This document shows, piece by piece, positions 11,594 to 48,344 of a stretch of DNA of 64,000 bases (the stretch's first letter is position 1; each line of letters begins with the position of its first letter). The stretch comes from Spirochaetia bacterium (lineage in GTDB: Bacteria > Spirochaetota > Spirochaetia > UBA9216). The notes under the pieces are model-generated. The model was not told the origin of the DNA. It did no database searches and saw only the letters and a program-made list of their open reading frames with translations. The DNA lies in NCBI GenBank assembly GCA_963677925.2, contig CAXXYH010000004.1, positions 1,792,001 through 1,856,000 on the forward strand. Reading direction: 5' to 3'. Both the position numbers and the translations under genes were made by a program.

Positions 11594-11595
11594 GA

Positions 11596-30543: not shown

Positions 30544-31849
30544 TATACCGCTGGTAGCTATTGCCGGCAGGCCGAATGTAGGCAAATCAACTTTATTTAA
30601 TAGAATTATCGGAAAGAGGAAGGCTATAACAGATCCGGTTCCGGGTGTTACACGTGATCCTGTTGAAGAAATTTGTGTAATCGGCGACACTAAAATAAGA
30701 CTTACAGATACCGGCGGGTATAAACTCGATCAGGAGGCTCTCGATGATCTTGTTGTTTCAAGAGCTCTTGAAGTAATTGATGCGGCAGATCTTGTTCTTC
30801 TGGTTCTCGATATAAAGGAAACAACGCCGGAGGATGAGATCCTGATTGAAGCACTGCGTCCATATACTGAAAAAATTCTTCTTGTTGTCAACAAGGTTGA
30901 CGGCCCCGAGAAAATGAATGAAATATGGAATTTTTATTCATATGGTTTTGAAAATATCTATCCAATCTCCGCTACTCACGGAATTGGTATTGGAGACCTG
31001 CTCGAAGTGGCCGAAGCCCGTGTAAAGGGAATTGCAGGCAGTTCCGAGTTTATCGAAGAAGATGCGGATATTCGGATTTCAATTCTTGGAAAACCGAATA
31101 CCGGAAAATCAACCCTTATCAACAGCCTTACAGGCAAGAAACATTCAATAGTTTCCGACATTCCAGGTACCACAAGAGATATTGTCGAAGGTCAGTTCGT
31201 CTATAAAGATAATAGGTTCAGAATACTTGATACAGCCGGCATCAGAAGAAAGAAGAAGGTTACTGAAGACGTTGAATATTATTCCGTTAACCGTGCAATC
31301 AAAAGCATTGATTTATCAGATATAATTCTATTGATGATGGATGCTGAAGAAGGCCTGACTGATCAGGATAAAAAGATTGCAGGTCTGGCTGTTCGCAAGG
31401 GTAAGGGTATCATTCTTGTTCTTAATAAGTGGGATCTAATGAAAGACGTCCCCAATGCCTTTGAGGCGGTTGCTGACAGGGTTAGGTTCCTTTTCCCGGT
31501 GCTATCCTTTGCTCCGATAGTTCCACTGTCTGCATTAAAATCGGAAGGAGTTAACGTTCTTCTGGATAATGTGCTTAAAGTCTGGTGGCAGCTTAACCGC
31601 AGAGTTGAAACATCGGCACTGAATGCTCATCTTAAAGACTGGGTTGAGGAAAATGAGCCTCCAAGAACCAAGACCGGCCGGTTCAAGATTAAATACATTA
31701 CCCAGGTCAGTGCAAATCCGCATCACTTTATTGCCTTTGTAAACAGAAATAAGAATTTTCCGGAATTCTATGCCAGATATCTTATGAGAATGATAAGGCA
31801 GGATTTTGGACTTAATTTAATACCTCTGACCCTAGATTTCAGGGAGTAG
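30512..31849 (+). CDS. der: ribosome biogenesis GTPase Der (EngA)
   Basis: Two G domains: GRPNVGKS/DTGG/NKVD and GKPNTGKS/DTAG/NKWD. Confidence 0.97.
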   Translation: MTGLNSLNSNNIPLVAIAGRPNVGKSTLFNRIIGKRKAITDPVPGVTRDPVEEICVIGDTKIRLTDTGGYKLDQEALDDLVVSRALEVIDAADLVLLVLDIKETTPEDEILIEALRPYTEKILLVVNKVDGPEKMNEIWNFYSYGFENIYPISATHGIGIGDLLEVAEARVKGIAGSSEFIEEDADIRISILGKPNTGKSTLINSLTGKKHSIVSDIPGTTRDIVEGQFVYKDNRFRILDTAGIRRKKKVTEDVEYYSVNRAIKSIDLSDIILLMMDAEEGLTDQDKKIAGLAVRKGKGIILVLNKWDLMKDVPNAFEAVADRVRFLFPVLSFAPIVPLSALKSEGVNVLLDNVLKVWWQLNRRVETSALNAHLKDWVEENEPPRTKTGRFKIKYITQVSANPHHFIAFVNRNKNFPEFYARYLMRMIRQDFGLNLIPLTLDFRE

Positions 31850-31861
31850 GACCTTAAGTGC

Positions 31862-32182
31862 ATGGAATCGTATTCAATCGGGGAAGTCTGCCGGCTGCTT
31901 AATGTTAAACCGCATGTGCTCAGATACTGGGAGCAGGAATTTTCCCTGCTCTCCCCGAGAAAAGATTTTAACGGTCAGAGGAAATATACTTCCAATGATC
32001 TGAACACTCTCTATCGGATAAGGCACCTTCTTTACGAGGAAAAGTATACTATAGAGGGCGCCCGAAACCGTATCTGGAAGGATGTTTCGTCCGGTAATGC
32101 CGATCTGCGGGCTGCAATTAATTCCATGAGACAGTCACTTGTAAGTCTTTCACTAAAAGTTGAAAAATCATCCGAATCCTGA
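31862..32182 (+). CDS. short MerR-family HTH protein
   Basis: YSIGEVCRLLNVKPHVLRYWEQEF, GQRKYT, LLYEEKYTIEGA. Confidence 0.9.
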   Translation: MESYSIGEVCRLLNVKPHVLRYWEQEFSLLSPRKDFNGQRKYTSNDLNTLYRIRHLLYEEKYTIEGARNRIWKDVSSGNADLRAAINSMRQSLVSLSLKVEKSSES

Positions 32183-33512
32183 CGATAATAAATCTGTGAG
32201 AAAAATCATCCTTAGTACAGCACTAATTACTTTTTTTATTTTAATTCCATCGGTATCAATATTCGCATGGCCTGAAGATAAAGATTACGGCTTTCCTGAA
32301 AATTATGAAATTCGTATGCAGCTTCGTGAAATAATTACAGCACCTACCGGTGATGTGCTTAATTCCCGGGAAAAAAACTATCCGCAGCAGTCCGGACGTT
32401 CAAGGGTTAAGTATGATGTTAAAACCCAGAATGACAGTTTCTATATGCTTTTTATCAATGAGAAGGATTATTGTTATCCTGTATACAGCAGCGGGACTTA
32501 TATAATAAGACGTAACCTGGATGACGGAAAGTTTAGTCAGATTAAGGTCTTTCTGAAAAACGACAGTGAATGTTTTGTCCGGATTTACCCTGATAATGAT
32601 CGCGCTGTGCTTGAGCTTAATATTTACGGTAAACTGATTTATTCAGGAATCAACCTTCCATACAGTTTTTCCGATGTTTTAGTACTTCCATTTGCTGATA
32701 TTATTAAGTCTACTGCCGGGATTATTGACTGGGATCTTATCTTTCCAGATAGATACTCAATCTCCTCGGACAGTAAGATGATTCTGCTTGATGAAATCCG
32801 CAGGGAACTTCCAAAGCTCAGTGATGAAGATGACGGTGCTTTAGATGCGGATGGTGAATTCCGTTTTATTGAAAATCTGGAGATCATGGAAACTCCGGGC
32901 TTTAACTGTTCGGGTTTTGTAAAGTGGGTTGCAGACAGTATTTATGCGGGACTTACAGGAAAATATATGGGGATTCGAGAGCTGAAAGAAAAGTTTCTTG
33001 ATCTTCGCGGAAATAGATGGTCTGCGAGATATGAGAACGAACGTGATCCATATTTCGGTCTGGACTGGACAAGGAATATAGCAACAGAAATCCGATCGGT
33101 ATGGAAGCATGAGGAGTCCGGATATGAATCAGCTGATGTGACCAGTGTCCCCTGGGCTGATTATGTTGAAGATGTAGGATTTCCGATTGGGGAACTTAAA
33201 ACAATAATGTACTACCTTGCAGTTACTGAACCTTCAGCCCTATATCTTGCATCAGTTAATATTCCCTGGGGAGAAGGTCCGGTACTGAGACAGCATGTAC
33301 ATACCGCAGTTCTTCTGCCATCCATCAGAAACAGAGATGATTTTGATGATGTTATTTTAGAACGTAATTTTGAGAGCAATACCGAAAGTCTTGAAAAAAG
33401 GTATCCCGGTGCTTATGTTCACCTTGTAAGAATTGAAGTCCCTTCTGTTGTGAGACTGCCTCAGCTCGTTAATGAGGAAGGTCTGGGGGATCGCAACCTT
33501 TTCAGGCGTTAA
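32160..33512 (+). CDS. secreted hypothetical protein with NlpC/P60-like Cys-His motifs
   Basis: Signal peptide (possible GTG start 32196), GFNCSGFVKWV and QHVHTAVLL. Confidence 0.55.
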   Translation: MKNHPNPDDNKSVRKIILSTALITFFILIPSVSIFAWPEDKDYGFPENYEIRMQLREIITAPTGDVLNSREKNYPQQSGRSRVKYDVKTQNDSFYMLFINEKDYCYPVYSSGTYIIRRNLDDGKFSQIKVFLKNDSECFVRIYPDNDRAVLELNIYGKLIYSGINLPYSFSDVLVLPFADIIKSTAGIIDWDLIFPDRYSISSDSKMILLDEIRRELPKLSDEDDGALDADGEFRFIENLEIMETPGFNCSGFVKWVADSIYAGLTGKYMGIRELKEKFLDLRGNRWSARYENERDPYFGLDWTRNIATEIRSVWKHEESGYESADVTSVPWADYVEDVGFPIGELKTIMYYLAVTEPSALYLASVNIPWGEGPVLRQHVHTAVLLPSIRNRDDFDDVILERNFESNTESLEKRYPGAYVHLVRIEVPSVVRLPQLVNEEGLGDRNLFRR

Positions 33513-33531
33513 CGGAAAAAATCGAAAAATC

Positions 33532-33560
33532 TTGAAAATTGGAATGCAAAGGTATATCCT
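33532..33560 (+). promoter_or_regulatory. sigma70 promoter candidate for the TPR-barrel-exbBD-tonB operon
   Basis: TTGAAA(33532-37), 17 nt, TATCCT(33555-60). Confidence 0.5.
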
Positions 33561-33569
33561 ATCAAGGAT

Positions 33570-36440
33570 ATGAAAAGGATATTCTTATCTTTATTGATTT
33601 TTATAATTCCTCTGCTTCATGTCTCTGCGGATGCCCGCGAACTTTATCTGGAAGCAGAAGGCCGATTCCGGAGCGCAAATTATACAGCTGCTCTTAATCT
33701 ATACCAGCGGTTGATTGATGACTATCCCATCTCAACCTATGTTGCTGATGCTCAGTTCAGAAAGGCTATCTGCCTGTATCAGACAGGGAAGGGTAATGAG
33801 GCCCTTAGTCTGTTTGAAAAAGTCAGCAGCCGTTACCGCTCGACATCCTATATTGAACTTGTTCCCTTCTGGCAGGCCAGAGTGTATCTGGAGCAGCAGG
33901 ACTTTTCAAAGGCAGTAGTCTTTTTTGATGATTATATAAAAAGCGGCGATGACCGGCTGATATCAGATGCCTATCTTTACCGTGCTATGTGTTATGATAA
34001 TATGGGTAATACAGCTGATGCCGCCTTTTCTCTTGAACTGCTTTTGCAGCGGGAGGACTTTAACGATGACGGTTATATATCTGCTTTGCTTTGCAGTCTT
34101 TATCTGAAGCAGAGTAAGTATCAGACTATTATTGATTTTTTTGATGAGACATCTCCTGATAATTTTGATTCACAATGGCAGGGACGTCTGAGGCTTTATC
34201 GTGCCGAATCCTATTACATGCTTGGAGATATGGATAATGCCCAGAGACTGTATACCGAGCTTATTGGTGTTGAGGGTGCAGAACCTGCGTGGCAGCGTCT
34301 TTTTACAATCTACCGGAAAGCGGGCAGAAACGATGAACTTGTAAGTCTTCTAAATGAGGCTGAAAAGACTCTTAATGATAAGCCTCTTATTCTTCAGGAT
34401 TTCAGAATGAGAATAGGAATTGCGTCCTATAATGCCGGAGATATAAAAACAGCCCAGACCTACCTGCTGAAAGCATGGGATACTTCAGATCCTTCAGCTC
34501 TTAACGGCCTTGTCCCATTATACCTGTCCCGGATTCTTGAAGACGCCGCAAATACGGATCGAGCAATTGAAATTCTTGAAATCTTTTTAACATCTTCTGA
34601 TTCGCATAGAATGGAGATTCTTGTCAGGCTGGCCGGGCTTTATACCTCTGAAGAAGAATGGGGCAGAGCTGAAAGTCTTCTTGATGAATTTTTCCGCGAC
34701 TATTCTGAATCTGCACTTTTTTCTGATGCTGCATATCTGAAAGCCTTTATCTGCTACAAGACAAACCGGATTGAAAATGCGTCAGAGTATGTCTCCAGGG
34801 CTTATTCTGCTGATGAGAAGGGAGAACGGACTGCAGCGCTGCTGCGTCTTGACTCCACACTTCTGAAGAAAACTGGTAAATACAGCAGAGCTGCAGAAAC
34901 TCTTCAGCGTTATATAGATCTGCGTCCCGATGAACTTTCTGCAAGGCTTGATCTTTTGAGAATAAGGTTTCAGATGAAAGACTATAATACACTTCTCAAC
35001 GAAGCCGTTGAACTTAAATGGAATGACAGTGTCAGAAGCGGAAACGAATATGTCTATGTGCTTTCATCATATCTAAGCGGTCTTGCCGCTACGGCTGAAG
35101 GTGATTATCAGAGGGCTCTTAATGAATTGGCGTTGATCAGCCCTGTGAATTCAGAGTCTGCAGGTGTTCCTGAGATTTATACTTATTCAGAGTATTACCG
35201 CGGGTGGGCTCTGTACCGCCTTGCACGTTATCCTGAGGCTGTTAAAGCTTTCGATGAGCTGACAAGAGATTATCCTGATTCGGATTCTGCCGCTGATGCA
35301 GCCTACATCGCCGGCTGGAGTTCATATTTGATGGGAGATTATGATGCCTCCTCTGGTTTTTTTCTCCGCTATACTACTTTAAGCGGCGATAGTACAAAAG
35401 GCCGCTTTATGTACGCTAAGAATCTTGCCTCACTTGGGCGCTACCGTGAAGCAAGCACTATTTTTGCAGAGATAGCGAACTCTGATGGCGCGGGTATGCT
35501 TGCCGACGATGCTTTATTTGAGAAGGCTGCGCTGGCAGCGATAGGGAATGACACCGAACAGGCGGCAAAAGACTATCTGACCCTGTATCAGAAATACGGC
35601 GGACAGCTTGCGGAAGAGGGAATGTACCGCAGGGGCGAGATTTATTATGCCGCGGGCAGCTTTAAAAAGGCTGTTGATGCATTCTATGATTTTCGAAGAA
35701 GCTATCCTGAAAGCAGAATGATGGATGCTGCTCTTTATTGGGGAGGCATGTCATCCATGAAAAATGATGAATCTTTTGGTGCTGTTCTACTCTGGGAAAA
35801 GCTGATAAATGATTATACTGAATCGGGCTTCCGATCTTCAGCAATGATGAAAACAGCTGAAGTCTTTACCAGTTCAGGTGATTATTCTTCTGCTCTTGAT
35901 ATGTATGAAAGATGCAGGCTTGAATACCCGGGTACCGACAGAGCTTCGGAATCTTCAGCTATGTCTGAGAAGATCAGGTTTCTGCTGGACGGTCTTTCAG
36001 ATAGAGAGGCTGAACTTAATGTTATAATCACACGTGAAGGCGGTGCGGATACTGCCGAGGGCCGTGAAGCGATGATAGAGCTTGCCGCGCTTCATATTTC
36101 CAGGGGCGGCGGTGATATGAAACCTGTTATTTCGATGCTGAATCAGGTGAAAGAAATGAAGGCTGAAGATCCCGTTTCCGCAGCCCTGGCTAATTACTAC
36201 CTTGGTGATTATTACTTCAGACAGAACAGGCCTGCCGAGGCTGCTGCAGCCTTCACTGAGGCTGCCGGCACAAATCCGGAGGATCTTGACTTCTCTGCCC
36301 GATCTCTGTACAGGGCGGCGGAAGCTGCTCTTCTTGCCGGAAGCCGGAGCGACGCTCAGGCGCTTGTAAGGCAGCTTAAGCTTCATTACGAAGAATCGGA
36401 ATGGGCTGATGAAGCTGACAAGCTTCTTGGAGGCAACTAG
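33570..36440 (+). CDS. exported long tetratricopeptide-repeat protein
   Basis: Sec signal MKRIFLSLLIFIIPLLHVSA; repeated BamD/CpoB-type caps YPxSxxAxDAxY along the whole length. Confidence 0.88.
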   Translation: MKRIFLSLLIFIIPLLHVSADARELYLEAEGRFRSANYTAALNLYQRLIDDYPISTYVADAQFRKAICLYQTGKGNEALSLFEKVSSRYRSTSYIELVPFWQARVYLEQQDFSKAVVFFDDYIKSGDDRLISDAYLYRAMCYDNMGNTADAAFSLELLLQREDFNDDGYISALLCSLYLKQSKYQTIIDFFDETSPDNFDSQWQGRLRLYRAESYYMLGDMDNAQRLYTELIGVEGAEPAWQRLFTIYRKAGRNDELVSLLNEAEKTLNDKPLILQDFRMRIGIASYNAGDIKTAQTYLLKAWDTSDPSALNGLVPLYLSRILEDAANTDRAIEILEIFLTSSDSHRMEILVRLAGLYTSEEEWGRAESLLDEFFRDYSESALFSDAAYLKAFICYKTNRIENASEYVSRAYSADEKGERTAALLRLDSTLLKKTGKYSRAAETLQRYIDLRPDELSARLDLLRIRFQMKDYNTLLNEAVELKWNDSVRSGNEYVYVLSSYLSGLAATAEGDYQRALNELALISPVNSESAGVPEIYTYSEYYRGWALYRLARYPEAVKAFDELTRDYPDSDSAADAAYIAGWSSYLMGDYDASSGFFLRYTTLSGDSTKGRFMYAKNLASLGRYREASTIFAEIANSDGAGMLADDALFEKAALAAIGNDTEQAAKDYLTLYQKYGGQLAEEGMYRRGEIYYAAGSFKKAVDAFYDFRRSYPESRMMDAALYWGGMSSMKNDESFGAVLLWEKLINDYTESGFRSSAMMKTAEVFTSSGDYSSALDMYERCRLEYPGTDRASESSAMSEKIRFLLDGLSDREAELNVIITREGGADTAEGREAMIELAALHISRGGGDMKPVISMLNQVKEMKAEDPVSAALANYYLGDYYFRQNRPAEAAAAFTEAAGTNPEDLDFSARSLYRAAEAALLAGSRSDAQALVRQLKLHYEESEWADEADKLLGGN

Positions 36441-36441
36441 G

Positions 36442-38121
36442 ATGAACAACAGATTACTGAATTTATGTTTAATTATATTCTTTATTGCCGGTTCAGTTTA
36501 TTCCCAGGAGCGGGAAAGTGATTTTCAGTCAGGCCCTGCTGAACCTGAGAGTACAGATATTATTCTTCCACCCATGTATCTTGAAATAGAAGATCTCAGT
36601 GTAGAGAATATAAATGCGGTTATTCCGGATGAAGATGAAGTTTACTATTCATCACTTGATACGCCTCTACCGCAGCTTGATGATATTGAACTTCCGTATG
36701 AAGCATTTGCTGTAACAGGTTCTCCGGATTCTTTTTCAGGCGTCAAGCCTGCCGATTCTGAACCTGTTTCATTTTTCAGTGAGGGAATGATTGGTTTTGG
36801 TTCTGCTCTGGATGTTACAGGAGATATCACTCTTTATAAAATAGGAGATCAGCCTAATTTCATGCTTCGATATTTTCATGACGGTTATGACGGCACCTGG
36901 GGTCATTCTCCCGGACAGGGATATTCCTACCGTCAGGAACTTATTGAGGCGGAAATTGAATATGCCGAAGGTAAAACTGATCTGTATGGATATTTCCAGT
37001 ATACGGAAACTGAGACCGGGCTGCAGGGGAATGCAGATTATTACTCTATGACTCAGCGTATTCCGGAACTCAGCAGTACGGCGGAATATAGAATTATTGA
37101 CTGGTTCAGACTGGAAGGACGTCTGGATAGTTCTTATGCCGGTCTTTTTCTAAATGGAACCGATCCGCTTAATTACGGAGTGTATCTTATTGATCCTGCA
37201 GCAGGGCTCAGGGTCGGAAATAATTCAATATGGTCCGAGCTAGGGCTGGAGTATAATATTACCGGAACTTCAGAGTCCGGTATGTTATCGGGCGCGGCTC
37301 TTCCGGTTGTTCAGGATTTCAGCGTTACTCTGGATTTCGGTTCTGATTTCGGTGATGTCATAAGTATAAAAGGCGGCGTTGATTATCTGCTTCACGATTT
37401 TACCGACTCTTACTGGCCTTTTTATCTAAGTGTTGACGGGCTTGGCGGTGATTTTCTTGAGTACAGTGCAGGAGGCGGGTACAGGGCTGAGACTCTTAAT
37501 TACGCAGAGTTCAGCACGGAATATCCTTTCGCTTCAGGGCCGCTGAGTGACACCATGATCGGGGAACTGCCCATTACAACCGGCTGGTTTGCCGATGCCG
37601 GCTTACGCTGGAAATTGACCGAGAATCTGACTGCGGGCGCTTCTGCCGGTTTTGAGATGCTTAATAATGCTCCGTATCCCGGAACCAGCAGTATAGGCGG
37701 GTTTAATTCAATTACAACCGCCGATCTTACATTGCTTAATCTTGATCTGGAGATTAACTGGAGGATGTCTGATAATCTTCTTTTTGAATCCACCTGGGCT
37801 GCACAGCTTTTAAATGATATTGACCCCTACAGACCAAGACATATGATAACCGCGGGGGTTGATCTTGAAGATGACAATTCCGATAAGGGACTGTCATTCT
37901 CGGCAGGAGTTTCAATATATGATGAATCGCAAAGCTGGTATGAAACAAACTGGATGCCGAAGCTGTCTCTTGAAGGATATCTAAGGCTTACTGAAGGCGT
38001 TCTCCTGTCTGCAGGTTTTGATGATATCGCGGGAAATCTCTTTGACAGCACTAGACTTTCCTGGAATACATTTGAGGCAAAGGGTGCTTCGGCACTGATT
38101 AAATTAAAAATTTCACTATAA
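36442..38121 (+). CDS. putative outer-membrane beta-barrel protein (TonB-partner-like)
   Basis: Signal peptide, acidic/Pro N-terminal segment, then alternating aromatic/Gly amphipathic strands; ends ALIKLKISL; ATG 36442 one base after the TPR stop. Confidence 0.65.
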   Translation: MNNRLLNLCLIIFFIAGSVYSQERESDFQSGPAEPESTDIILPPMYLEIEDLSVENINAVIPDEDEVYYSSLDTPLPQLDDIELPYEAFAVTGSPDSFSGVKPADSEPVSFFSEGMIGFGSALDVTGDITLYKIGDQPNFMLRYFHDGYDGTWGHSPGQGYSYRQELIEAEIEYAEGKTDLYGYFQYTETETGLQGNADYYSMTQRIPELSSTAEYRIIDWFRLEGRLDSSYAGLFLNGTDPLNYGVYLIDPAAGLRVGNNSIWSELGLEYNITGTSESGMLSGAALPVVQDFSVTLDFGSDFGDVISIKGGVDYLLHDFTDSYWPFYLSVDGLGGDFLEYSAGGGYRAETLNYAEFSTEYPFASGPLSDTMIGELPITTGWFADAGLRWKLTENLTAGASAGFEMLNNAPYPGTSSIGGFNSITTADLTLLNLDLEINWRMSDNLLFESTWAAQLLNDIDPYRPRHMITAGVDLEDDNSDKGLSFSAGVSIYDESQSWYETNWMPKLSLEGYLRLTEGVLLSAGFDDIAGNLFDSTRLSWNTFEAKGASALIKLKISL

Positions 38122-38135
38122 TTTCTGGAGGAAAT

Positions 38136-38753
38136 ATGTTTGTTCTGATTGAAAAGGGCGGTCCGGTAATGATTGTTATTCTGATCCTTTCCGTAATTGC
38201 CGCTGTTATTATAATAGAAAGACTTCTGTTTTTCAGGAGGATTAAAAGTGATGAAGAAAAGGTTATAGCAAACCTCAGGGGGGCACTTGAACAGAATCAC
38301 TTCTATGAAGCTATAGCGATTTGTGAAAGCGATCCTTCCCCGGTTGCAAACCTGATGAAGGTCGGTATCGAACACAGGCATTATTCTCAGTCAGAGATTA
38401 AAGAGTCGATTATGGGTGCTGCCAATATGGAAGTTCCCAGGCTGGAGAAGTATCTCTCTGCCCTCGGAACCATAGCTCATATTGCGCCGCTGCTGGGGCT
38501 TCTGGGAACAGTTACCGGAAATATCAAGGCTTTCGGACTTCTCGGTTCTGTCGGAGCCCTTGGAGATTTTTCTATGCTCGCTTCTGGAATTTCCGAGGCA
38601 CTGTTTACAACGGCAGCAGGCCTCATTGTATCAATTCCTGCAACGGTTTTTTACAACCATCTGGTTAACCGGGTCAATAACATTATTCTCAGGATGGAAA
38701 ACAGTGTAAATGAACTGGTACTTCTGCTGAAAGGAAAAGATAATGCATTTTAG
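38136..38753 (+). CDS. exbB: MotA/TolQ/ExbB proton channel protein
   Basis: GGPVM, APLLGLLGTVTG, GISEALFTTAAGL. Confidence 0.9.
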   Translation: MFVLIEKGGPVMIVILILSVIAAVIIIERLLFFRRIKSDEEKVIANLRGALEQNHFYEAIAICESDPSPVANLMKVGIEHRHYSQSEIKESIMGAANMEVPRLEKYLSALGTIAHIAPLLGLLGTVTGNIKAFGLLGSVGALGDFSMLASGISEALFTTAAGLIVSIPATVFYNHLVNRVNNIILRMENSVNELVLLLKGKDNAF

Positions 38754-39159
38754 AAGACGTCTGAGTCCCTCAGTCAAGGCTGATCTTGTGCCTATGATTG
38801 ATGTGGTATTTCAGCTTGTAATCTTTTTTATGGTTTCAAGCACGTTTCTGCAGACGCCCGGAATCTCAATTAATCTGCCTGAGTCATCAACTGCCGAGTC
38901 GGTTACCATGACCAGAATGGTAGTTTCTGTCGTTTCAGAAAATGAAATATACCTCAACAAGGATGTTTATAATCTGACAGGATTGAGAACAGCCTTATCT
39001 GAAGTTACTGAAGAGCAGAAGAGTGAACTTAGTGCAGTTGTAATAGAGGGGGATGAAACCGTATCTTATGAACTGCTTGTAAATGTTCTTGATTCGCTAA
39101 GAATGTACGGTTTTAACGGAATTAATCTTAAGATGAGGACACCGCAGGAATCGCAGTAA
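38743..39159 (+). CDS. exbD: ExbD/TolR protein
   Basis: DLVPMIDVVFQLVIFFMV with the conserved Asp; INLPES; IEGDETVSY. Confidence 0.9.
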   Translation: MHFRRRLSPSVKADLVPMIDVVFQLVIFFMVSSTFLQTPGISINLPESSTAESVTMTRMVVSVVSENEIYLNKDVYNLTGLRTALSEVTEEQKSELSAVVIEGDETVSYELLVNVLDSLRMYGFNGINLKMRTPQESQ

Positions 39160-40175
39160 TGACAGTTGAAAATAAACGGATGCTTACAAGCGTAAGTGCT
39201 GCTCTGCTTATTCATACTGCAGCATTTATACTCATCGGTATGAATACCCTTGATTTTACTCCCCCCAGAGAATTCGGTCCGCTCGAGGTCAGCCTTGAGC
39301 CGCTTCCGGTCAAGGATAAGCCTGCAGAGCCCGAACAGAAAAATCTTGAGCAGACGGCCCCTCAGCAGAGTCCTTCCGAGGCAGAACAGGTAAATCAGGC
39401 AGAGGCTCTTCCCTCTGAAAAGACTGTAACTCCTGCGCCGAAGCCTGTTCCCGTCCAGAAAACATCCCCGGCCAGGAGTACGACTGAGTCAAGGACCTAT
39501 ACAGCCTCAAGTGCTGATGATGATGTTATTTCATCAATACAGTCGCGTACAAGCACTTCAGGGAATGTGGATTTAAGCAGAATTTGGGGCAGCGGTTCCG
39601 ACTCGGTTCCTGCAACAAGGGCAGACAGTAGTACCGCAGCAGCCGGAGGAGAGGGGAGCTATGTAGAGTATTCTGATATACCTGTTGAAGCACAGACAGC
39701 TCCTCAACCGGTAGAAGAGCAGCCTTCAGATACATCTGTCCTTGGTTCAGAGGTTCTTGCAAATCTTGATGAAAGACTGAATAGTCAGAATACGAATTCA
39801 TCCTCCAATTCTGAATCTGCATCCAGTTCGACCGGTGCTGCCGGCAGTTCATCGGCACTGATAAATGATGGTCCGGCACTTATTGTTTTTGATGATCCAT
39901 CAATACAGCGGAAGGTTATAGAACCAAGGGCTCAGCCGGAAATCCCCGAGGATATTAAAACTGCAGGTATCCCTAAGTATACCCTCCGAATCACATTCCT
40001 TGTTGATGGAGAAGGATATACAAGCAGTTTTCAGATACTTCAGCCCTCAGGCAACTCAAGATTGGATTCTGCTGTGCAGGCGGCTTTACGAAAATGGCAG
40101 TTTGAGCCGGCAAGGGGACAATCCTCTGAAGAAAAAGTTCGAGCTACTCTTACATATGTTATAGAAACCAAGTAG
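39159..40175 (+). CDS. tonB: TonB-family energy transducer
   Basis: TM with His (ALLIH), Pro/Ser-rich linker, C-terminal FLVDGEG...SGNSRLDSAVQAALRKWQFEPA. Confidence 0.85.
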   Translation: MTVENKRMLTSVSAALLIHTAAFILIGMNTLDFTPPREFGPLEVSLEPLPVKDKPAEPEQKNLEQTAPQQSPSEAEQVNQAEALPSEKTVTPAPKPVPVQKTSPARSTTESRTYTASSADDDVISSIQSRTSTSGNVDLSRIWGSGSDSVPATRADSSTAAAGGEGSYVEYSDIPVEAQTAPQPVEEQPSDTSVLGSEVLANLDERLNSQNTNSSSNSESASSSTGAAGSSSALINDGPALIVFDDPSIQRKVIEPRAQPEIPEDIKTAGIPKYTLRITFLVDGEGYTSSFQILQPSGNSRLDSAVQAALRKWQFEPARGQSSEEKVRATLTYVIETK

Positions 40176-40185
40176 AATAAGCCCC

Positions 40186-40848
40186 ATGGAAATTAAAGCA
40201 GTCGGATTCGACATAGACGGTACTCTGTATCGAAATATGATGATGTATATATGCAGTACCCCGTCATTTATCAAGCACCCCGTACTTGTCTCTCACTTCA
40301 GTAAGGCCCGAAAAGAAATCAGGAATATCAGACCGATTGATGATTTCCGGAAGGTTCAAACCTCCCTTATTTCGGCATCTATGGGGATTCCGGAGGCCCG
40401 TGTTGAAGCTATGGTTGAAAAGCGTCTCTACAGGGACTGGGAAGATACCTTTAAATGTATAAGACCTGTTAAGGGTGTTAGACAGACTCTTGAAAAAATA
40501 AAGGAGCTTGGCCTTGGTCTTGGAGCCCTTTCTGATTTTCCGGTTCAGAATAAGCTCAAATATCTTGGACTTGACGGTTACTGGGACTGTGAATTTACAT
40601 CTGAGGAAACCGGCTACCTGAAACCTCATCCCGAATCCTTTCTTCTTCTCTCCGAGAGGTTGGGTGTGAAACCGGAAGAAATCCTTTATGTCGGAAACTC
40701 ATACAGCAAGGATGTTGAAGGTGCGGCAGCTGTAGGGATGAAGACAGCGCATTTCAGTTTAAAAAAGAAAGATAATTCTATTGCTGATATAACTTTCGGG
40801 AGATACAGCGAACTATATCAATACCTGTGCCGGCTGGAAAAACGTTGA
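40186..40848 (+). CDS. HAD-family hydrolase
   Basis: FDIDGTL motif I, LSD, LKPHP, YVGNS...D. Confidence 0.9.
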   Translation: MEIKAVGFDIDGTLYRNMMMYICSTPSFIKHPVLVSHFSKARKEIRNIRPIDDFRKVQTSLISASMGIPEARVEAMVEKRLYRDWEDTFKCIRPVKGVRQTLEKIKELGLGLGALSDFPVQNKLKYLGLDGYWDCEFTSEETGYLKPHPESFLLLSERLGVKPEEILYVGNSYSKDVEGAAAVGMKTAHFSLKKKDNSIADITFGRYSELYQYLCRLEKR

Positions 40849-40918
40849 CAAGTATGCTAAACTGGTAGAAGATGTAAAACAGAGAAATATAGCAAAAAAC
40901 TGGGAATTTGGGGGGGCT

Positions 40919-43900
40919 ATGTTATTCTCAATCGGTAACATAATCACAATACTTATAGTATTGACTATACTTGCGCTTTACAGGCAATTCGACAGAAATA
41001 ACAGATCTCTTGACAAGATAAGAAGATATGCTGAAAAGGTAACTTCAGATCTCGATTCCTTTGTGGATTCAAAGACTCAGGATATGAAAAACCTTGCAAT
41101 AGAGATAGATGTTCATCAGAAGGCTGGAAAGGAAGTGCTGAAGCGGATCACTGCTGTTGAAGACGGTTTCAGTGATAAAGCCCGTACAATCGACGAAATA
41201 AACAACAGAATTAATGAATACGACAAGGTTCTTAACCAGCTGATCGGAATGACCGGAAAGGTTGATGAAAACCTGCAGCGGCTTCATCAGGAATCTGAAT
41301 TTGTTGATAAGGTTGGAAAAAGGCTGAAAGATGCCCAGATCAGGGTCAGTCAGCTTGAAAAAAATATTCCGGAACTAAACAGTAAATTCGCTGTGGAAAA
41401 TGAAAAATCTCTTGAGCAGCTCCGCATTGAAGTAATGTCAGGAGTTGAACGTCAGATTTCAGCAATAATGGATAATGTTGAACGCAGCTCGGACCGTGTT
41501 GATGAGTTCAGCTCTTATATGACTGATCTTGAAAACCGCAGGGATAATGCCGCCGACGAGGTGATGAGTCAGGTTAATATGAAGCTTGACAAAGTGCTAT
41601 CCGACACCGATGAACAGGCTAAGACCATCATGCATGATTTTTCTTCTGCTCTTGAAGGGTATATTGAATCGGCAGATAAAAAGAAAAGTGATATCAATCA
41701 TCAGCTGGAAGCTTCAGAGCAGAAATTCAGAACTCATATCGACCAGATTGGGGAACTGCTGAATAATAAACTTGTTGATTTTAAGGATAATGTTAATTCT
41801 CTTGAAGAAGAGTACCAGAAAAACCTCAAGGACGCTGCGGAGAAGGCCAAGAAGCTCGAGGATGATGTATTTATCAGTCTTAAATCCTACATCGATTCAA
41901 AGGCCAATGATGCAAGAAAGGATATTACTGCCTCTCTTGAGTCTATTAAAAAAGAAACTGTTGTATATAAGAATCATATTGAGTCTTCATTCGGAGAAGG
42001 GCAGTCTCAGATTGCAGTATGGAAGGCTAAACTTAAGAAAGAATTTGATGATAGTGCAGAGGCGGCGTCACAGCAGTTTAATTCATTTAAAACTGCTATT
42101 GAAGCTCAGATCCAGGAGCTTCTTGCCAAAGATCAGGATATGTCTGATGAAGTCAATTCCCGCTATGAGAAAATGGCTCAGGGGATTGAAAATACAGCAG
42201 CTTCCTACAGGCAGTCGCTTGATAGCAGGCTGGAAGAGGTCAGAACCGGTTTTCTCGCATCAGTTGATGACAGCAGTGCAGAATTGAATCGTAAATTCAA
42301 CGGCAGAATGGATGAACTTATCTCTCTCGTAGGAGAAAAGGAAAAGCAGCTTACTGATTTTGAGGAATCTCTTGCTTATAAACTTTCCAGGATAGAGGAT
42401 GTAACATCTGATATCGATACACTTGAACAGAACCTCAAGCTGATGGTTGATAAATCTGTGGATGCGGTAAATGAGAACTTTACCGGCATACAGCAGCAGA
42501 TGGAGTCTTTCTGGAGCGGCAGCGAGCGTGAAATTAAGGATCAGGTTGCTCAGACCAGAGAAGTAATAAATGCACTTGAACAGGAAATAAACGAGCTTAA
42601 GACCCGTGCCTACGACAATGTTTCCGCCGGTCTGCGTGAATTTGAAGACGGCTTTTTTGATGATCTCCGTCAGCGAAGCAGCCAGATGACCACTCAGTTT
42701 ACCGAATGGCAGGAGTCTATCAACGAAAAACTCAAAACTCTGGCACAGGAACATTCTGAGGCACGCTCATCCATGGAAGCTGAGTATATCGAAGAGCTTG
42801 CTGCAGGAGTAGCCGGTCTTCGTGAGAGTACTGCTGAGCGGTTCCGGGGCTATGAGCATCAGCTTTCAGAATACGCTGATACTATCAGTGCAAAGATGGG
42901 ATCTGTGGACGAGCTTGTTGAGCGCTCAAAAGCTGACATCCAGAATCAGATGGAAAGCGGCCGACGAGACTCTGAAGCCCTTATTGCGGCCGAGATGGAC
43001 AAGGTTCGCGACTCACTTAATGAAGGCATGAACCGTGTAAGACGGGAGGCAGAAGAAAGCCTGAGCGGAGTTGAAGCAGCAATGGCTGCAGAGACTGAAA
43101 AACTCAGTGAGTCTGTTGAAGCCCGGAAGGCAGAACTTGAGTTGTGGCAGTCAAGACTGCTGCGGCAGATTCAGGATATAGAGAATGGTATTCTCGAGCA
43201 GTATGCCGGTATGCGTTCTGAATCATCTGAGCGGATCTCTGAAATCCGAGAGGCTCTTTCGACTCAAAGAGATGAGTTTGATAATGTTTCAGCGGACATT
43301 CAGAAACGCAGCCGTGATTTCCAGAATGAGCTTGAACAGCAGATGAGAACTTTTGAGGAAAGATCTTCTGAAATAAGTGAGAATTTTACCCTTGCTACCA
43401 AGCGGATGTATGAAAAGATAGATGAGCAGACAAGAGAACTGTCCTTCACTGTGGCCGAAATTGATAAACAGCAGAAAAGCTTTATTGCGCAGACAAAAAT
43501 ATTTGAGCGTGCTGATTCGATGAAGGAATCGCTGGAAGGCGGCATTGATGCTCTGAAGGATGAAATCCTCCGTGTAACAAACCAGGCTCAGGAAATAAGG
43601 GAAGCTGAGAAGAAATTTGCACTTATTAAAAAGCAGGCTGATGATATTTCGGCTAAAATGGCCAAATTTGCTGCTGATAAGCGTAAAATTGAGGAACTGG
43701 ATGAAGATTTTACAAAACTCCTTTCAATTAGTCAGTCGGTTGACTCAAAACTTGCACAGGTTACTACTGCCGATGATTCGCTTCAGCTTATTCAGGCTAA
43801 ACTGAAGGATCTTGACGGTCTGCAGTCAGAAGTTGAGGGCCGTTATGAGCGGCTTAAAAAGAAGGAATCTATCGTTGATTCAACTATCGACGGTGTTGAC

Positions 43901-44368
43901 AGAAGTTTCAAGCAGCTTAATGAGCTGGACCATCTTATAAGTGTTATTCAGGAAAAGAGTTCGCCTATGTCGTCAAGACTGGATGAACTTACCCGACGGA
44001 TTGATTTTCTTTCAAAGAACAAGAAGCAGATTGATACTGCCATAGAGCAGATTGAAGGTATAGATACTGTTATTTCCGATCTTGAAGACAGAATGGACCG
44101 CATGCAGAAGGCTAGAGAATGGCTTGCCGGAATCGAGACCAGGCTTGAGGATGTAAACAAGCAGGCTCAGGACCAGGTAAGGCTTCTGGGCACTCTTGTG
44201 AAAGATTCTGCTTCAAAAACACGCGGAGGAGGGGCTCCTCCCATGGAAATCAGGGATGTAGTTATAAAACTTGCGCATCAGGGCTGGACTGTAGAGCAGA
44301 TTGCACGTTCTACCAAGCTTGCCAGGGGAGAAGTTGAACTCATTCTTGAACTTCAGCCCAAAAAATAG
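40919..44368 (+). CDS. membrane-anchored long coiled-coil protein of spirochaete type with C-terminal HTH-like segment
   Basis: N-terminal TM then DRNNRSLDKIRRY, about 1050 aa heptad-rich, ends VIKLAHQGWTVEQIARSTKLARGEVELILEL. Confidence 0.8.
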   Translation: MLFSIGNIITILIVLTILALYRQFDRNNRSLDKIRRYAEKVTSDLDSFVDSKTQDMKNLAIEIDVHQKAGKEVLKRITAVEDGFSDKARTIDEINNRINEYDKVLNQLIGMTGKVDENLQRLHQESEFVDKVGKRLKDAQIRVSQLEKNIPELNSKFAVENEKSLEQLRIEVMSGVERQISAIMDNVERSSDRVDEFSSYMTDLENRRDNAADEVMSQVNMKLDKVLSDTDEQAKTIMHDFSSALEGYIESADKKKSDINHQLEASEQKFRTHIDQIGELLNNKLVDFKDNVNSLEEEYQKNLKDAAEKAKKLEDDVFISLKSYIDSKANDARKDITASLESIKKETVVYKNHIESSFGEGQSQIAVWKAKLKKEFDDSAEAASQQFNSFKTAIEAQIQELLAKDQDMSDEVNSRYEKMAQGIENTAASYRQSLDSRLEEVRTGFLASVDDSSAELNRKFNGRMDELISLVGEKEKQLTDFEESLAYKLSRIEDVTSDIDTLEQNLKLMVDKSVDAVNENFTGIQQQMESFWSGSEREIKDQVAQTREVINALEQEINELKTRAYDNVSAGLREFEDGFFDDLRQRSSQMTTQFTEWQESINEKLKTLAQEHSEARSSMEAEYIEELAAGVAGLRESTAERFRGYEHQLSEYADTISAKMGSVDELVERSKADIQNQMESGRRDSEALIAAEMDKVRDSLNEGMNRVRREAEESLSGVEAAMAAETEKLSESVEARKAELELWQSRLLRQIQDIENGILEQYAGMRSESSERISEIREALSTQRDEFDNVSADIQKRSRDFQNELEQQMRTFEERSSEISENFTLATKRMYEKIDEQTRELSFTVAEIDKQQKSFIAQTKIFERADSMKESLEGGIDALKDEILRVTNQAQEIREAEKKFALIKKQADDISAKMAKFAADKRKIEELDEDFTKLLSISQSVDSKLAQVTTADDSLQLIQAKLKDLDGLQSEVEGRYERLKKKESIVDSTIDGVDRSFKQLNELDHLISVIQEKSSPMSSRLDELTRRIDFLSKNKKQIDTAIEQIEGIDTVISDLEDRMDRMQKAREWLAGIETRLEDVNKQAQDQVRLLGTLVKDSASKTRGGGAPPMEIRDVVIKLAHQGWTVEQIARSTKLARGEVELILELQPKK

Positions 44369-44479: not shown

Positions 44480-45142
44480 ATGGCGGAAAAGAGTGAACAG
44501 GCAGAGGCTGAGAAAGAGGTAAAGGAAGAAACTACTGCAGCCGATGCGGATGTGACTACGGCCGGTACAGAGGGACCGGAATCAGCATCAGAAGAAGTAA
44601 AGTCTGGTGATGATAAGAAAAGCGCTTCTAAATCAAAAAAGAAGCATGATAAGGAATTAGAAGAGCTGAAAGCGGCTAATGAGAAGCTGGATGCCGACCT
44701 TGCGGAGTTAAAAGACCAGTATCTGCGAAAGCAGGCTGATTTTGATAATTTTCGCAAAAGAATGATCCGTGATAAGGAAGATTCGATTCGTTATGCCAAT
44801 TCACAGCTGCTGATGGATCTCATCTCGGTTATTGATGATTTTGAAAGGGCTTTGCAGTCCGGGAAAGAATCTGAAGATTTTGAAAAACTGTACAGCGGTA
44901 TTGAAATCATTGAAAAACAGATGGTCGGAATGCTCGAATCGAACTGGGGCCTGAAACGCTTCGACAGTGCCGGTGAGGAGTTTAATCCTGAAAGGCATGA
45001 GGCCCTTATGATGGAAGAGAACGGTGATTATGATACTCAGACTGTTCTTGAAGACTATATGAAAGGATACACCCTTCATGACCGTGTTGTACGGCATGCT
45101 AAGGTTAAGGTTAGTAAACCTGTTGAAAAACAAACTGAATAA
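44480..45142 (+). CDS. grpE: nucleotide exchange factor GrpE
   Basis: LRKQADFDNFRKR, VIDDFERAL, FNPERHEAL, KGYTLHDRVVRHAKVKV. Confidence 0.97.
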   Translation: MAEKSEQAEAEKEVKEETTAADADVTTAGTEGPESASEEVKSGDDKKSASKSKKKHDKELEELKAANEKLDADLAELKDQYLRKQADFDNFRKRMIRDKEDSIRYANSQLLMDLISVIDDFERALQSGKESEDFEKLYSGIEIIEKQMVGMLESNWGLKRFDSAGEEFNPERHEALMMEENGDYDTQTVLEDYMKGYTLHDRVVRHAKVKVSKPVEKQTE

Positions 45143-45170
45143 GAAAAGCACCTAAAAAGGAGATAATAAT

Positions 45171-47105
45171 ATGGGAAGAATAATCGGAATAGACCTTGGA
45201 ACAACCAATTCATGTGTTGCAGTAATGGAAGGCGGTGAGCCTGTAGTAATTCAGAACTCAGAAGGTCAGAGGACAACCCCCTCAATTGTAGCTTTCACCG
45301 ATAAGGAAGAAAGACTTGTTGGTCAGCCGGCGAAAAACCAGATGGTTACAAACCCTGAAAATACTATTTACTCTATTAAGCGGTTTATGGGAAGAAAATA
45401 TTCAGAGGTTCCTTCTGAAGTTAAAATGATTCCATATAATCTCGTCGAGGGATCAAGCGGCGAGATTCGTGTTGACTCAAGAGGTAAACATTATTCACCG
45501 CCGGAGATTTCTGCTGCAATTCTTCAGAAGATGAAGAAAACAGCTGAAGACTACCTTGGTGAAACTGTAAGTGAAGCTGTTATCACTGTTCCTGCATATT
45601 TCAATGATGCACAGAGACAGGCTACAAAGGATGCCGGTAAAATTGCAGGCCTTGAGGTTAAGAGAATCGTTAACGAGCCTACTGCTGCTTCACTTGCATA
45701 TGGTCTTGGACGTGAAACCAAAGATGAAAAAATAGCTGTATACGACCTTGGCGGCGGTACTTTTGATATTTCAATTCTTGAACTTGGTGACGGTGTTTTT
45801 GAAGTTAAATCAACCAATGGTGATACACATCTCGGAGGTGATAACTTCGACCAGGCAGTTATTGACTGGCTGATTGATTCTTTCAAAAAAGATCAGTCAA
45901 TTGACCTTTCAAAGGATAAAATGGCTCTTCAGAGACTTAAAGAGGCTGCTGAAAAGGCTAAAATTGAGCTTTCTTCAAGACAGAGTACAGATATCAACCT
46001 TCCGTTCATTACAGCGGATGCATCAGGACCCAAACATCTTCAGTACAATCTGTCCAGAGCACAGTTTGATCAGATGACTTTATCACTTGTTGAAAGAACA
46101 AAGCAGCCATGTATCAATGCAATCAAGGATGCAGGACTTTCAGCATCTGAAGTTGATGAAGTTATCCTTGTAGGCGGTTCTACACGTATCCCTGCAGTTC
46201 AGGAAATGGTTAAACAGATTTTCGGGAAAGAACCTAACAGGGGAGTTAATCCTGATGAAGTTGTAGCAATGGGTGCTGCAATTCAGGGCGGTATTCTCGG
46301 CGGTGATGTTAAAGATGTTCTTCTTCTTGATGTTACCCCGCTTTCACTTGGTATTGAAACTCTTGGCGGAGTCTCAACAAAGCTCATTGAAAGAAATACT
46401 ACTATTCCTACTAGAAAGAGCCAGATTTTCTCAACAGCCGCAGATAATCAGACTGCAGTATCAATACATGTACTTCAGGGTGAGCGTGAAATGGCTGCGC
46501 AGAACAGAACTCTCGGCAAGTTTGACCTGGTAGGTATTCCATCAGCTCCAAGAGGTGTTCCTCAGATTGAAGTTGCTTTTGATATTGACGCTAACGGTAT
46601 TGTACACGTATCTGCAAAGGATCTTGGAACCGGTAAAGAGCAGAAGATTAGAATTGAATCTTCATCAGGACTCTCAGAGGCTGAAATTGAGAAAATGGTT
46701 AAGGATGCTGAGCTGAATGCGGAAGCGGACAGAAAAGAGAAAGAAAAAGCTGAAGTCAAAAATGAAGCTGAGACACTCGTTTATTCAACAGAGAAATCAT
46801 TGAAGGATTACGGTGACAAGGTAACAGATGAGGATAAAGCTAATATTGAAAAATCTCTTGAAGATCTTAAAGCAGCTCTTTCATCCGGTGATGTTGAGCA
46901 GATGAAAGAAAAGGTTGAAGCCCTTAAAACTGCATCACATAAACTTGCTGAAGAGATTTATAAGGCTGCAGGTGCTCAGGCCCAGCAGGGTGAGGCTGCC
47001 CCGGGCGCAGAAGCAGGTGCTCAGCCGGAGCAGGAAGAGGCTCCCAAGAGCGGCAGTGTAGATGATGTAGATTTTGAAGTTGTAGATGATGAGGATAACA
47101 AATAA
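45171..47105 (+). CDS. dnaK: chaperone DnaK
   Basis: [32 protein letters not shown]. Confidence 0.99.
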
Positions 47106-47139
47106 AAATTTTACTTCAGAAACTATATATTCAAATATC

Positions 47140-47171
47140 AAGCGCAAACCCCGTTTCGGGGATTTGCGCTT
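47140..47171 (+). terminator. stable hairpin between dnaK and dnaJ (partial terminator or stabiliser)
   Basis: AAGCGCAAA-CCCCG-ttt-CGGGG-a-TTTGCGCTT; short U-tail only. Confidence 0.6.
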
Positions 47172-47219
47172 TACTGCAATATGAGCTAGAACAATCAGCA
47201 TCAGTACAGGGTTAGTAAT

Positions 47220-48344
47220 TTGGCAAAGAGAGATTATTATGAGGTTCTTGGAGTAGACAAGAGCTCAAGTAAAGATGAAATTAAAAAGGCATACAGAAAG
47301 CTTGCAATACAGTTTCATCCTGATAAAAATGCAGGAAATGCAGAAGCTGAGGAGAAATTCAAGGAAGCAACCGAAGCCTATGAAGTTCTGAGTGATGACA
47401 AGAAAAAGGCAGCTTATGACCAGTTCGGGTTTGCCGGTGTTGACGGAGTTAACAGTCCCGGAGGCGGTCATGACTACTCCACAGTTTTCCATGATTTTGA
47501 AGATATTTTCGGCGGAATGGGAGGTATCTTTGATTCCTTCTTCGGCGGAGGCGGCAGAAGCCGCAGCGGTGGAGGCGGTGTGCCCAGGGGATCAGATCTC
47601 AGGTATAATCTCGAAATATCTTTCAAGGATGCTGTGTTCGGTACAAATGTTGAAATCAGTTATACAAGGGATGTTGCCTGTAAGACCTGCAGCGGTTCAG
47701 GTGCGGCAGCAGGAACCGGCAGAAAAGTATGTCCAACCTGCGGCGGAACCGGTCAGGTTCGGCGAAACTCCGGTTTCTTTTCTATCGCTTCTCCATGTCA
47801 CACATGCGGCGGTGAAGGACATATTATCGAAAATCCCTGTACTGCATGTCACGGCAGCGGTCTTTCCAGAAAGACTCAGAAGATAAAGGTTACCATACCG
47901 GCTGGAATCGAAAACGGAAAACGGATATCAATTCCGGGGCAGGGTGATGCTGCTCCTAATGGCGGAAGAACAGGTGACCTCTATGTTTATATAAAGATCA
48001 AGCCTCATAAGTACTTTGAGAGGGATGCAAACAACGTTTACTGTGCACTCCCGATTACATTTACTCAGGCAGCTCTTGGCGCTGAAGTTTTTGTTAAAAA
48101 TCTCGAAGAAAAGAGGATTAAACTGAAAATCCCTGCAGGAACACAGACAGGAAAAATGCTCAGGCTTAAGAATGAAGGTATACCATACGTTCAGAATAAA
48201 AGCAGGAAGGGTGATATGTATATAAAAATAATTGTACAAACCCCTGCCAAGCTTAGTTCCCAGGCAAAGGATATTCTTAAACAGTTTGCGTCTGTCCAGG
48301 GCGAAGATTCTAGTCCGGAACCGATAGCTCTCTCAGATTTATAA
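47220..48344 (+). CDS. dnaJ: chaperone DnaJ
   Basis: J domain HPD, G/F region, four CxxCxGxG; TTG start. Confidence 0.98.

Follow-up and report, generated by a model that had tools for sequence, protein, structure and literature searches.

What might a spirochaete do with a Ton-type motor whose genes lie directly behind those of a very long tetratricopeptide repeat (TPR) protein and a barrel protein? Outer-membrane attachment and supply are poorly understood in spirochaetes, which a recent survey of periplasmic force transducers leaves unmentioned in its main text (PMC12204202). The question is raised by five genes on contig CAXXYH010000004.1 of a Spirochaetia bacterium (GenBank assembly GCA_963677925.2), of which we analysed positions 1,792,001 to 1,856,000 of the forward strand. 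This whole stretch of 64,000 nucleotides (nt) is called the window, and its coordinates are counted from its first letter. The five genes encode, in order, the TPR protein, the barrel protein and ExbB-, ExbD- and TonB-like proteins (Table 1). The combination is conserved in a group of so-far-uncultured Spirochaetia, yet it is uncharacterised. Our tentative reading, to which we give a probability of roughly 0.4, is that the genes encode a self-contained, proton-driven Ton-type envelope module in which a barrel without a plug is worked via its periplasmic tail, with the TPR protein as a scaffold and envelope maintenance as the favoured task. A preliminary description, made from the window's letters alone, had proposed a dedicated energised trans-envelope system at this place; what it observed was confirmed, whereas its interpretation was supported only in part.

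The structure of the barrel protein was predicted with AlphaFold2 from 29 sequences, with a pLDDT (predicted local distance difference test) score of 78.7 overall and of mostly 85-98 for residues 110-559. These residues form 22 strands (322-324 and 327-335 being counted as one) with short loops on both faces, and they follow a signal peptide (residues 1-22) and a periplasmic tail (residues 23-109). The signal peptide and the first barrel strand are no more than about 87 residues apart; residues 16-105 have a pLDDT below 50 and almost no secondary structure. The PDB matches listed by Foldseek were TonB-dependent transporters (TBDTs) without exception, with E values of 7e-18 to 2e-15 and template modelling scores relative to the query (TMq) of 0.57-0.62. 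They included OprC, PfeA, BtuB, FepA, PirA and FrpB, and the score relative to the target (TMt) was 0.58-0.59 for BtuB. Pfam and NCBIfam gave no match at E <= 0.01, the plug model PF07715 and the barrel model PF00593 included, and a profile of 29 family members found none of the PDB sequences at E <= 10. According to the model, the protein is a receptor-type barrel of roughly the size of the BtuB barrel without a plug, and it would be an outer-membrane 22-strand barrel descended from TBDTs. The preliminary description had recognised a barrel built of strands and suspected a reduced plug; the prediction is neither a canonical plugged 22-strand TBDT nor something other than a barrel, and with the start of the protein unstructured, both Pfam models unmatched and no PDB sequence reached by the profile, a plug is missing altogether.

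A search of 1.84 billion cluster representatives assigned 495 to the barrel family at E <= 1e-3, of which 420 reached <= 1e-10 and 230 reached <= 1e-30. An alignment-based second word-index search for relatives added one protein, P0084, which was an already known match. One source names a family member 'TonB-dependent receptor'. The neighbours in the ESM Atlas were unnamed Spirochaetota clusters, and the nearest named clusters (one with PF00593 in 38% of members, one auto-named BtuB, and Porin_10) serve as leads only. When 20 family clusters were looked up, five names came with an organism, each of them a 'hypothetical protein' of a Spirochaet- metagenome-assembled genome (MAG), and no cultured host was identified among them; the remaining named members read 'hypothetical protein' and give no organism. 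A search of longer proteins turned up no TPR-barrel or plug-bearing fusions, a result of little weight as evidence.

The best-conserved segment of the family, at residues 34-66, is a peptide of the periplasmic tail and not a surface-exposed part. Conservation was assessed in an alignment of the barrel protein with 163 full-length representatives out of 176, the 13 shorter than 500 aa having been dropped. Across these 164 sequences the mean majority fraction was 0.55 for residues 36-66, versus 0.37 for the barrel and 0.32 for residues 67-109, and the prolines of the tail were retained at 99% (P43), 99% (P62) and 90% (P35). Invariant tail columns in the first family alignment included P43, L47, E50, D51, L52, A59 and P62. 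A segment that is the best conserved of its family and at the same time periplasmic, acidic and strand-prone points to a protein-docking site, and TonB and/or the TPR protein are the candidates for docking on the tail motif. The TonB-box-like strand singled out in the preliminary description falls within this most conserved stretch of the whole family. A complex prediction of tail residues 23-115 with TonB residues 240-338 scored 0.00 against a mark of 0.32, which counts neither way for binding.

The TPR protein matched many TPR models of Pfam, including TPR_6, TPR_19 and TPR_16. The CpoB/YbgF model TIGR02795 scored 186 bits, summed over five stretches, against a cut-off of 90.1, and the NCBIfam models of BamD (98 bits), PrsT, PorW and LapB matched as well. 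An AlphaFold2 model built with 27 homologues was all-helical (53 helices, pLDDT 90.8, predicted template modelling score 0.52), in agreement with the exported all-TPR protein that had been described. Foldseek returned generic solenoids alone for this model (IFT-A, Ski3, Ctr9, APC and OGT, TMq <= 0.28) and is uninformative about partners. Comparison of the protein with itself revealed six weakly related modules and no clean tandem duplication. The N-termini of both the TPR protein and the barrel protein, judged by eye from the translations, are hydrophobic and signal-peptide-like and lack a lipobox cysteine. These matches suggest an exported solenoid of several CpoB/YbgF- and BamD-like TPR modules.

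The three remaining genes encode the complete ExbB-ExbD-TonB motor that had been proposed. The ExbB-like protein matched PF01618 (E 3.5e-32); it scored higher with TolQ than with ExbB both on NCBIfam (118 versus 65 bits, both under the cut-off) and against PDB sequences (68.8 versus 43.3 bits). The ExbD-like protein matched PF02472 (E 1.1e-27) and came closer to ExbD (50 bits) than to TolR (29 bits) among PDB sequences, an order that was reversed on NCBIfam (TolR 67.8, ExbD 55.8 bits). As read from its translation, Asp20 sits in its membrane helix. The TonB-like protein matched PF03544 at residues 276-333 (E 3.3e-07) and TIGR01352 at residues 276-334. Only about eight residues precede its N-terminal membrane helix, which is followed by a linker of about 220 residues rich in Pro, Ser, Ala and Glu, in which a Leu-rich motif around L203 is conserved, and by a TonB_C domain at about 250-338. 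His19 in the membrane helix is invariant in 23 of 23 homologues, and the invariant columns also include R7, L203 and R251. A profile of the 23 homologues scored 35.2 bits with TonB versus 21.4 with TolA. No FHA domain was matched in this protein by Pfam, and none of the three proteins reached an NCBIfam equivalog cut-off. What marks a Ton transducer is present: a channel of the MotA/TolQ/ExbB family, an ExbD with a membrane Asp, and a TonB with His, linker and TonB_C domain. Judging by these scores, the motor is a genuine member of the ExbB/TolQ-ExbD/TolR-TonB/TolA superfamily and is not cleanly assignable to either Ton or Tol.

The conservation of the module was estimated from genome contigs, which were scanned with a single peptide pattern of the tail; of 79 pattern matches, 35 encode a relative of the barrel. 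Since the scan relied on this one motif and would miss variant tails and other phyla, the taxonomic range is a lower bound. Record titles were Spirochaet- for 34 of the 35 loci and 'uncultured bacterium' for one. Neighbouring genes were called with hidden Markov models from our own alignments on six-frame open reading frames (ORFs), in the 34 loci that have upstream DNA (L026 has none) and in the 28 whose downstream DNA extends to 3 kb or more. Co-occurrence of the genes in other genomes, by which the preliminary description had proposed to judge its case, was borne out: the TPR gene lies directly 5' of the barrel gene in 34 of 34 loci, a TonB gene comes after the barrel in 28 of 28, and ExbB-ExbD come after it in 20 of 28, in one of them (L024) in the order barrel-TonB-ExbB-ExbD. 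The TPR-barrel-TonB part is the invariable core of the module. In all 34 loci the barrel gene has an in-frame start at -8 to +2 nt relative to the TPR stop codon, the two genes in most cases overlapping by 4 nt or 1 nt, an arrangement that argues for coupled translation and a fixed protein ratio. The other eight loci of the 28 read barrel-TonB-SpiroCoCo, with ExbB-ExbD not adjacent. The seven remaining loci are short downstream, and two of them (L025 and L027) show the start of TonB.

Further out, the neighbourhood depends on the clade. In 17 of the 28 loci the conserved gene that comes next downstream encodes a coiled-coil protein of the SpiroCoCo type, a gene for a 450-aa protein stands directly 5' of the TPR gene in 18 of the 35 loci, and a HAD-family gene follows TonB only in the close clade (L001-L006 and L018, 7 of 28 loci). 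All three are absent from a distant clade, whose barrels are 23-28% identical and in which the five genes are still together. A survey of 30 flanking ORFs at seven distant loci found flanks that vary by locus, with NAD(P)HX repair, flotillin-like, LysR regulator, pyridoxal phosphate enzyme and glycogen-type enzyme genes. Flanks that differ between the clades, around five genes that keep together, mark the module as an autonomous unit.

Two loci deserve separate mention. L024 and L029 are two contigs of one MAG and carry two modules, each with its own TonB. The L024 module (TPR-barrel-TonB-ExbB-ExbD) has divergent motor genes, with 77 and 52 bits to those of the window, and the L029 module stands in the 450-aa gene...SpiroCoCo setting without ExbB-ExbD. 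Modules without a motor may borrow one from a paralogous module. At L001, in a 94%-identical MAG, the barrel gene (9947-11681) is split into ORFs of 131 and 444 aa, the public record P0001 being the 444-aa part; the split stems from a frameshift or from faulty assembly in that record.

The surroundings of the module were examined through 40 ORFs of the window. Upstream are rpoC, ribosomal protein genes, secY, rpoA and the genes for RNase Y, PtsI and Der; downstream are grpE-dnaK-dnaJ. The window also holds rpsG, rplQ, tuf and the gene for TlyA, and at a greater distance pur genes, an M23 peptidase gene and lnt. No match to a Fur-type regulator, to a binding protein or ABC importer, or to either TolB or Pal was seen among the 40, in keeping with the housekeeping context, devoid of uptake genes and metal regulators, that had been described. 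The 30 flanking ORFs of the distant loci likewise lack Fur-type regulators, periplasmic binding proteins and dedicated ABC importers, one ORF at L010 having a weak ABC-type ATPase match, and in the 28 loci neither TolB nor Pal occurs in the stretch from the barrel to the conserved gene that comes next. Control by iron or B12, which would have spoken for a classical transporter, left no trace here: no Fur-type match lies nearby, and Rfam found no riboswitch in 31000-41000, its lone match being at chance level (IsrM, 15.4 bits against a gathering score of 376).

Taken together, these features suggest how the module might work. An ExbB/ExbD stator would energise TonB; the C-domain of TonB and/or the conserved linker motif would dock on the barrel tail, where the TPR solenoid would dock as well, as a scaffold; and force on the tail would either gate the unplugged barrel or hold an energised link between the inner and the outer membrane. 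The idea of a TonB-like domain working with a TPR scaffold leans on precedents, namely the Agl-Glt model (PMC11761067, PMC3169522) and TtpD2 (PMC6957404), as far as the accessible parts of these papers describe them. Envelope maintenance, that is, tethering, outer-membrane homeostasis or trafficking, is slightly favoured over nutrient import because the setting is of a housekeeping kind and looks constitutive, uptake partners are lacking, two of the parts have a CpoB/TolQ-like flavour, and conservation is periplasmic rather than on the surface.

Several points weigh against this reading. The loci in which ExbB-ExbD are not adjacent imply that the motor is not strictly dedicated. The CpoB match may merely reflect a common TPR subtype, given the BamD, PrsT, PorW and LapB matches alongside it. 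The survey covered the window and contig loci, and elsewhere in their genomes these organisms may also have Tol-Pal, other Ton sets or plugged receptors. ExbD and the TonB C-domain are nearer to ExbD/TonB than to TolR/TolA, which fits ordinary uptake equally well; the known structural relatives of the barrel are importers only, which weakens the lean towards the envelope; and plug-less TonB-type barrels of Bacteroides serve in sugar uptake, namely of short fructans, according to the available part of a preprint (bioRxiv 10.1101/2025.11.13.688124).

The last three points are also what makes ordinary TonB-dependent uptake through an unusual receptor the most likely of the alternatives, only slightly less probable to us than the envelope reading. 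A tail-gated or plug-less barrel would import, for instance, an oligosaccharide or a peptide, TonB would open or prime the channel, and the TPR protein would be an accessory in the manner of TtpD2, a TPR protein described in the accessible text as essential to the Vibrio TonB2 system (PMC6957404). Other observations speak against it. No binding protein, dedicated importer or catabolic enzyme is conserved across clades beside it, in the window or in the seven distant flanks (the weak ABC-type ATPase match at L010 aside), and the Rfam search brought no riboswitch. The short loops on both faces of the barrel and the missing plug leave little from which a binding site could be formed, and the most conserved part of the protein faces the periplasm and not the outside. 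The Bacteroides barrels, as described in part in the same preprint, stand beside carbohydrate-active enzymes (CAZymes) and not beside a TPR gene or a motor.

A bolder version of the envelope reading, which we consider unlikely, is that the module is a new energised envelope machine doing the job of Tol-Pal by linking the proton-motive force to the outer membrane. With similarly low odds, that job would be tethering, lipid/protein homeostasis or constriction; and it is just as questionable whether TolB and Pal are replaced by a TonB paralogue together with a TPR solenoid that spans the periplasm and a plug-less barrel drawn from the receptor family.

Export was considered too. Synthase-dependent polysaccharide exporters of the AlgK-AlgE, BcsC and PgaA type combine a TPR protein with a barrel of 16-18 strands, encoded beside synthase genes. 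In an analogous conduit a TPR scaffold and the barrel would move a polymer or protein outward with power from the Ton motor. The shared layout and the lack of a plug would suit such a conduit, and a TBDT (Oar, for the protease PopC) has been reported to be needed for protein secretion, as far as the accessible text goes (PMC6434023). We nevertheless hold export to be improbable: the barrel has 22 strands and TBDT neighbours in place of 16-18 strands, the module has no conserved synthase or cargo gene next to it, and the glycosyltransferase, GH57 and phosphorylase genes at L014 resemble a set for glycogen metabolism and do not recur in the other flanks. The want of TPR-barrel fusions among longer proteins adds weakly to this. 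A polysaccharide exporter proper was rejected on the type of the barrel and the missing synthase gene.

Least probable of all is that only descent has placed the TPR-barrel pair next to the motor, the pair working unpowered, for example as a porin with its chaperone or assembly factor, and the ExbB-ExbD-TonB set serving other receptors elsewhere in the genome: ExbB-ExbD are missing from the cluster in eight of 28 loci, and gene order in the close clade is conserved far past the module (450-aa gene, HAD, SpiroCoCo), so that part of the linkage is plain synteny, but TonB follows the barrel in every locus even where ExbB-ExbD were lost, the five genes stay together in distant clades with unrelated flanks, and the genome with two modules has a TonB in each.

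Returning to the locus itself, the five genes form a tight plus-strand cluster (33570-40175) in which they are separated first by 1 nt and then by 14 nt, and after that overlap by 11 nt and by 1 nt, as had been stated. A second in-frame ATG for the barrel at 36409 is also open, and the homologues start at the position of 36442. The preliminary description had drawn one promoter ahead of a five-gene operon. A promoter-like site does exist, ending 10 nt ahead of the TPR ATG with nearly no leader left, and it is one of many: the scanned region has 33 such sites versus 21.6 +/- 4.3 in shuffles. The five genes are indeed linked, and the transcription unit may exceed them, since no terminator-like site was found between the 450-aa gene and the TPR gene or its promoter-like site, and the HAD gene starts only 10 nt after the TonB gene. 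The HAD gene is probably co-transcribed with the module, although it lies outside the core; 70 nt separate it from the SpiroCoCo gene.

Table 1. Features of the five-gene cluster and its surroundings (window coordinates)
Feature	Position	Strand	Remarks
TPR protein gene	33570-36440	+	956 aa
Barrel gene	36442-38121	+	559 aa
Conserved tail motif of barrel	36541-36627	+	Residues 34-62; acidic, strand-prone, near-invariant prolines at borders
ExbB-like gene	38136-38753	+	205 aa
ExbD-like gene	38743-39159	+	138 aa
TonB-like gene	39159-40175	+	338 aa
HAD-family hydrolase gene	40186-40848	+	220 aa; PF00702 and PF13419 match
SpiroCoCo coiled-coil gene	40919-44368	+	1149 aa; NF047515 336 bits, NF047514 252 bits
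Upstream gene, 450-aa protein of unknown family	32160-33512	+	Ends 57 nt before TPR gene
Promoter-like site TTGAAA-17-TATCCT	33532-33560	+	9/12 positions match; doubtful
Inverted repeat	33554-33571		6-nt arms, 6-nt spacer
ORF inside cluster	35997-36449	-	Taken as shadow of + strand genes
ORF inside cluster	37827-38381	-	Taken as shadow of + strand genes
Small MerR-family regulator gene	31862-32182	+	Best match HspR (E 6.7e-08, below cut-off)
grpE-dnaK-dnaJ	44480-48344	+
1322-aa ORF	20752-24720	+	No NCBIfam match at E <= 1e-5
Local drop of GC content to 0.34	20001-22000

The inverted repeat spans the -10-like hexamer, the Shine-Dalgarno-like AAGGA and the TPR start codon, and it could be due to chance, a small hairpin or an operator. 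Two genes 5' of the TPR gene lies the HspR-like regulator gene, which overlaps the start of the 450-aa gene; the envelope module separates this regulator gene from grpE-dnaK-dnaJ, which lie 12 kb 3' and run in the same direction. The 450-aa protein is Spirochaetota-specific, has a signal- or anchor-like start and is a possible accessory of the module. It had no Pfam, NCBIfam or PDB match and received no name from the ESM Atlas. Its invariant columns (15 homologues) include N249, C250, S251, G252, F253, H379 and H381; the Asn-Cys-Ser-Gly-Phe stretch and the His residues are, we presume, reminiscent of NlpC/P60-type cysteine peptidases. At a distance from the module, the 1322-aa ORF lies between rplQ and the RNase Y gene, and GC content falls locally as given in Table 1.

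If the envelope reading is true, the module adds a third kind of outer-membrane end to the Ton and Tol stories; if instead it is an importer only, the idea of a plug-less receptor extends beyond Bacteroidota. The module would also illustrate that a 22-strand receptor barrel can persist unplugged when tied to other periplasmic partners, and the five-gene set is a defined target for genetics and structural work.

How the module relates to known systems can be judged part by part. With TBDTs such as BtuB, FepA and OprC, its best PDB neighbours, the barrel shares 22 strands, a full ExbB/ExbD/TonB set beside it and a conserved strand-prone N-terminal segment at the place of the TonB box. TBDTs differ in having a plug domain, whereas the module barrel is unplugged, matches neither PF00593 nor PF07715 and has no sequence similarity to PDB entries; moreover, it is always paired with the long TPR protein and has no uptake or regulatory partner genes near it. 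Plug-less relatives of this kind have been described in part for Bacteroides, whose 'Type S' SusC-like barrels are plug-reduced or plug-less natural TonB-type barrels missed by Pfam (bioRxiv 10.1101/2025.11.13.688124). Those differ in length (about 770 aa), in standing beside CAZymes rather than a TPR gene and motor, and in phylum. A pair of long TPR and short TonB-dependent receptor genes in Bacteroidota, mentioned in the preliminary description, was not found in our searches. Nor did the (mostly open-access) literature yield a description of a spirochaete cluster of TPR protein, plug-less barrel and ExbBD-TonB.

Tol-Pal with CpoB resembles the module in its proton-driven TolQ-like channel, its transducer of the TonB/TolA type, the CpoB-model score of the TPR protein and the housekeeping setting. 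The outer-membrane partner of Tol-Pal is a lipoprotein, however, whereas the module has a barrel; its ExbD and TonB C-domain score nearer to Ton than to Tol proteins; and the E. coli CpoB model (263 positions) is about a quarter as long as the module's TPR protein. Tol-Pal proper was rejected, TolB and Pal being absent from the cluster, the 40 window ORFs and the 28 loci.

TPR partners of such motors have precedents, each known to us from part of its source. By description, the Agl-Glt/Nfs machinery of Myxococcus (AglRQS, GltD/E/G/C) combines a TolQR-type motor, a TonB-C transducer, large periplasmic TPR proteins and outer-membrane barrels within a single assembly across the envelope, as the module does. 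In an AlphaFold-based model, GltG and GltJ rest with their TonB-like domains on the TPR protein GltD, which takes up a long GltG segment in a crevice, and the TPR protein GltC joins the outer-membrane barrels (PMC11761067). An ancestral 'core complex' of linked motor, TonB-like and TPR genes is described, of unknown function in non-gliders (PMC3169522, PMC11761067), and spirochaetes are not listed among its carriers in the accessible text. That machinery has two TolR-like genes, a cytoplasmic FHA domain on GltG and the small barrels GltA/B/H, in contrast to the one ExbD, the lack of FHA and the 22-strand TBDT-type barrel of the module. The Glt core complex proper was rejected on the single ExbD homologue and the missing FHA domain. 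Clusters of TPR, tolQ and tolR genes with other transducers are reported from the Planctomycetes-Verrucomicrobia-Chlamydiae (PVC) group (PMC12204202, as far as accessible). In the Vibrio TonB2/TonB3 systems, by partial description, the Ton operon itself includes the gene for a TPR protein, and TonB2 requires this protein (TtpD2; PMC6957404). TtpD2 has 425 aa and is encoded after tonB2 together with TtpB and TtpC, and the plugged receptors are encoded elsewhere. In view of TtpD2 (PMC6957404) and the GltD model (PMC11761067), so far as these papers are accessible, the premise of the preliminary description that Ton systems need no TPR partner was too strong. With a defining feature lacking in each case, the module is not a plugged TBDT, Tol-Pal or the Glt core complex, and it works most like a Ton-type system.

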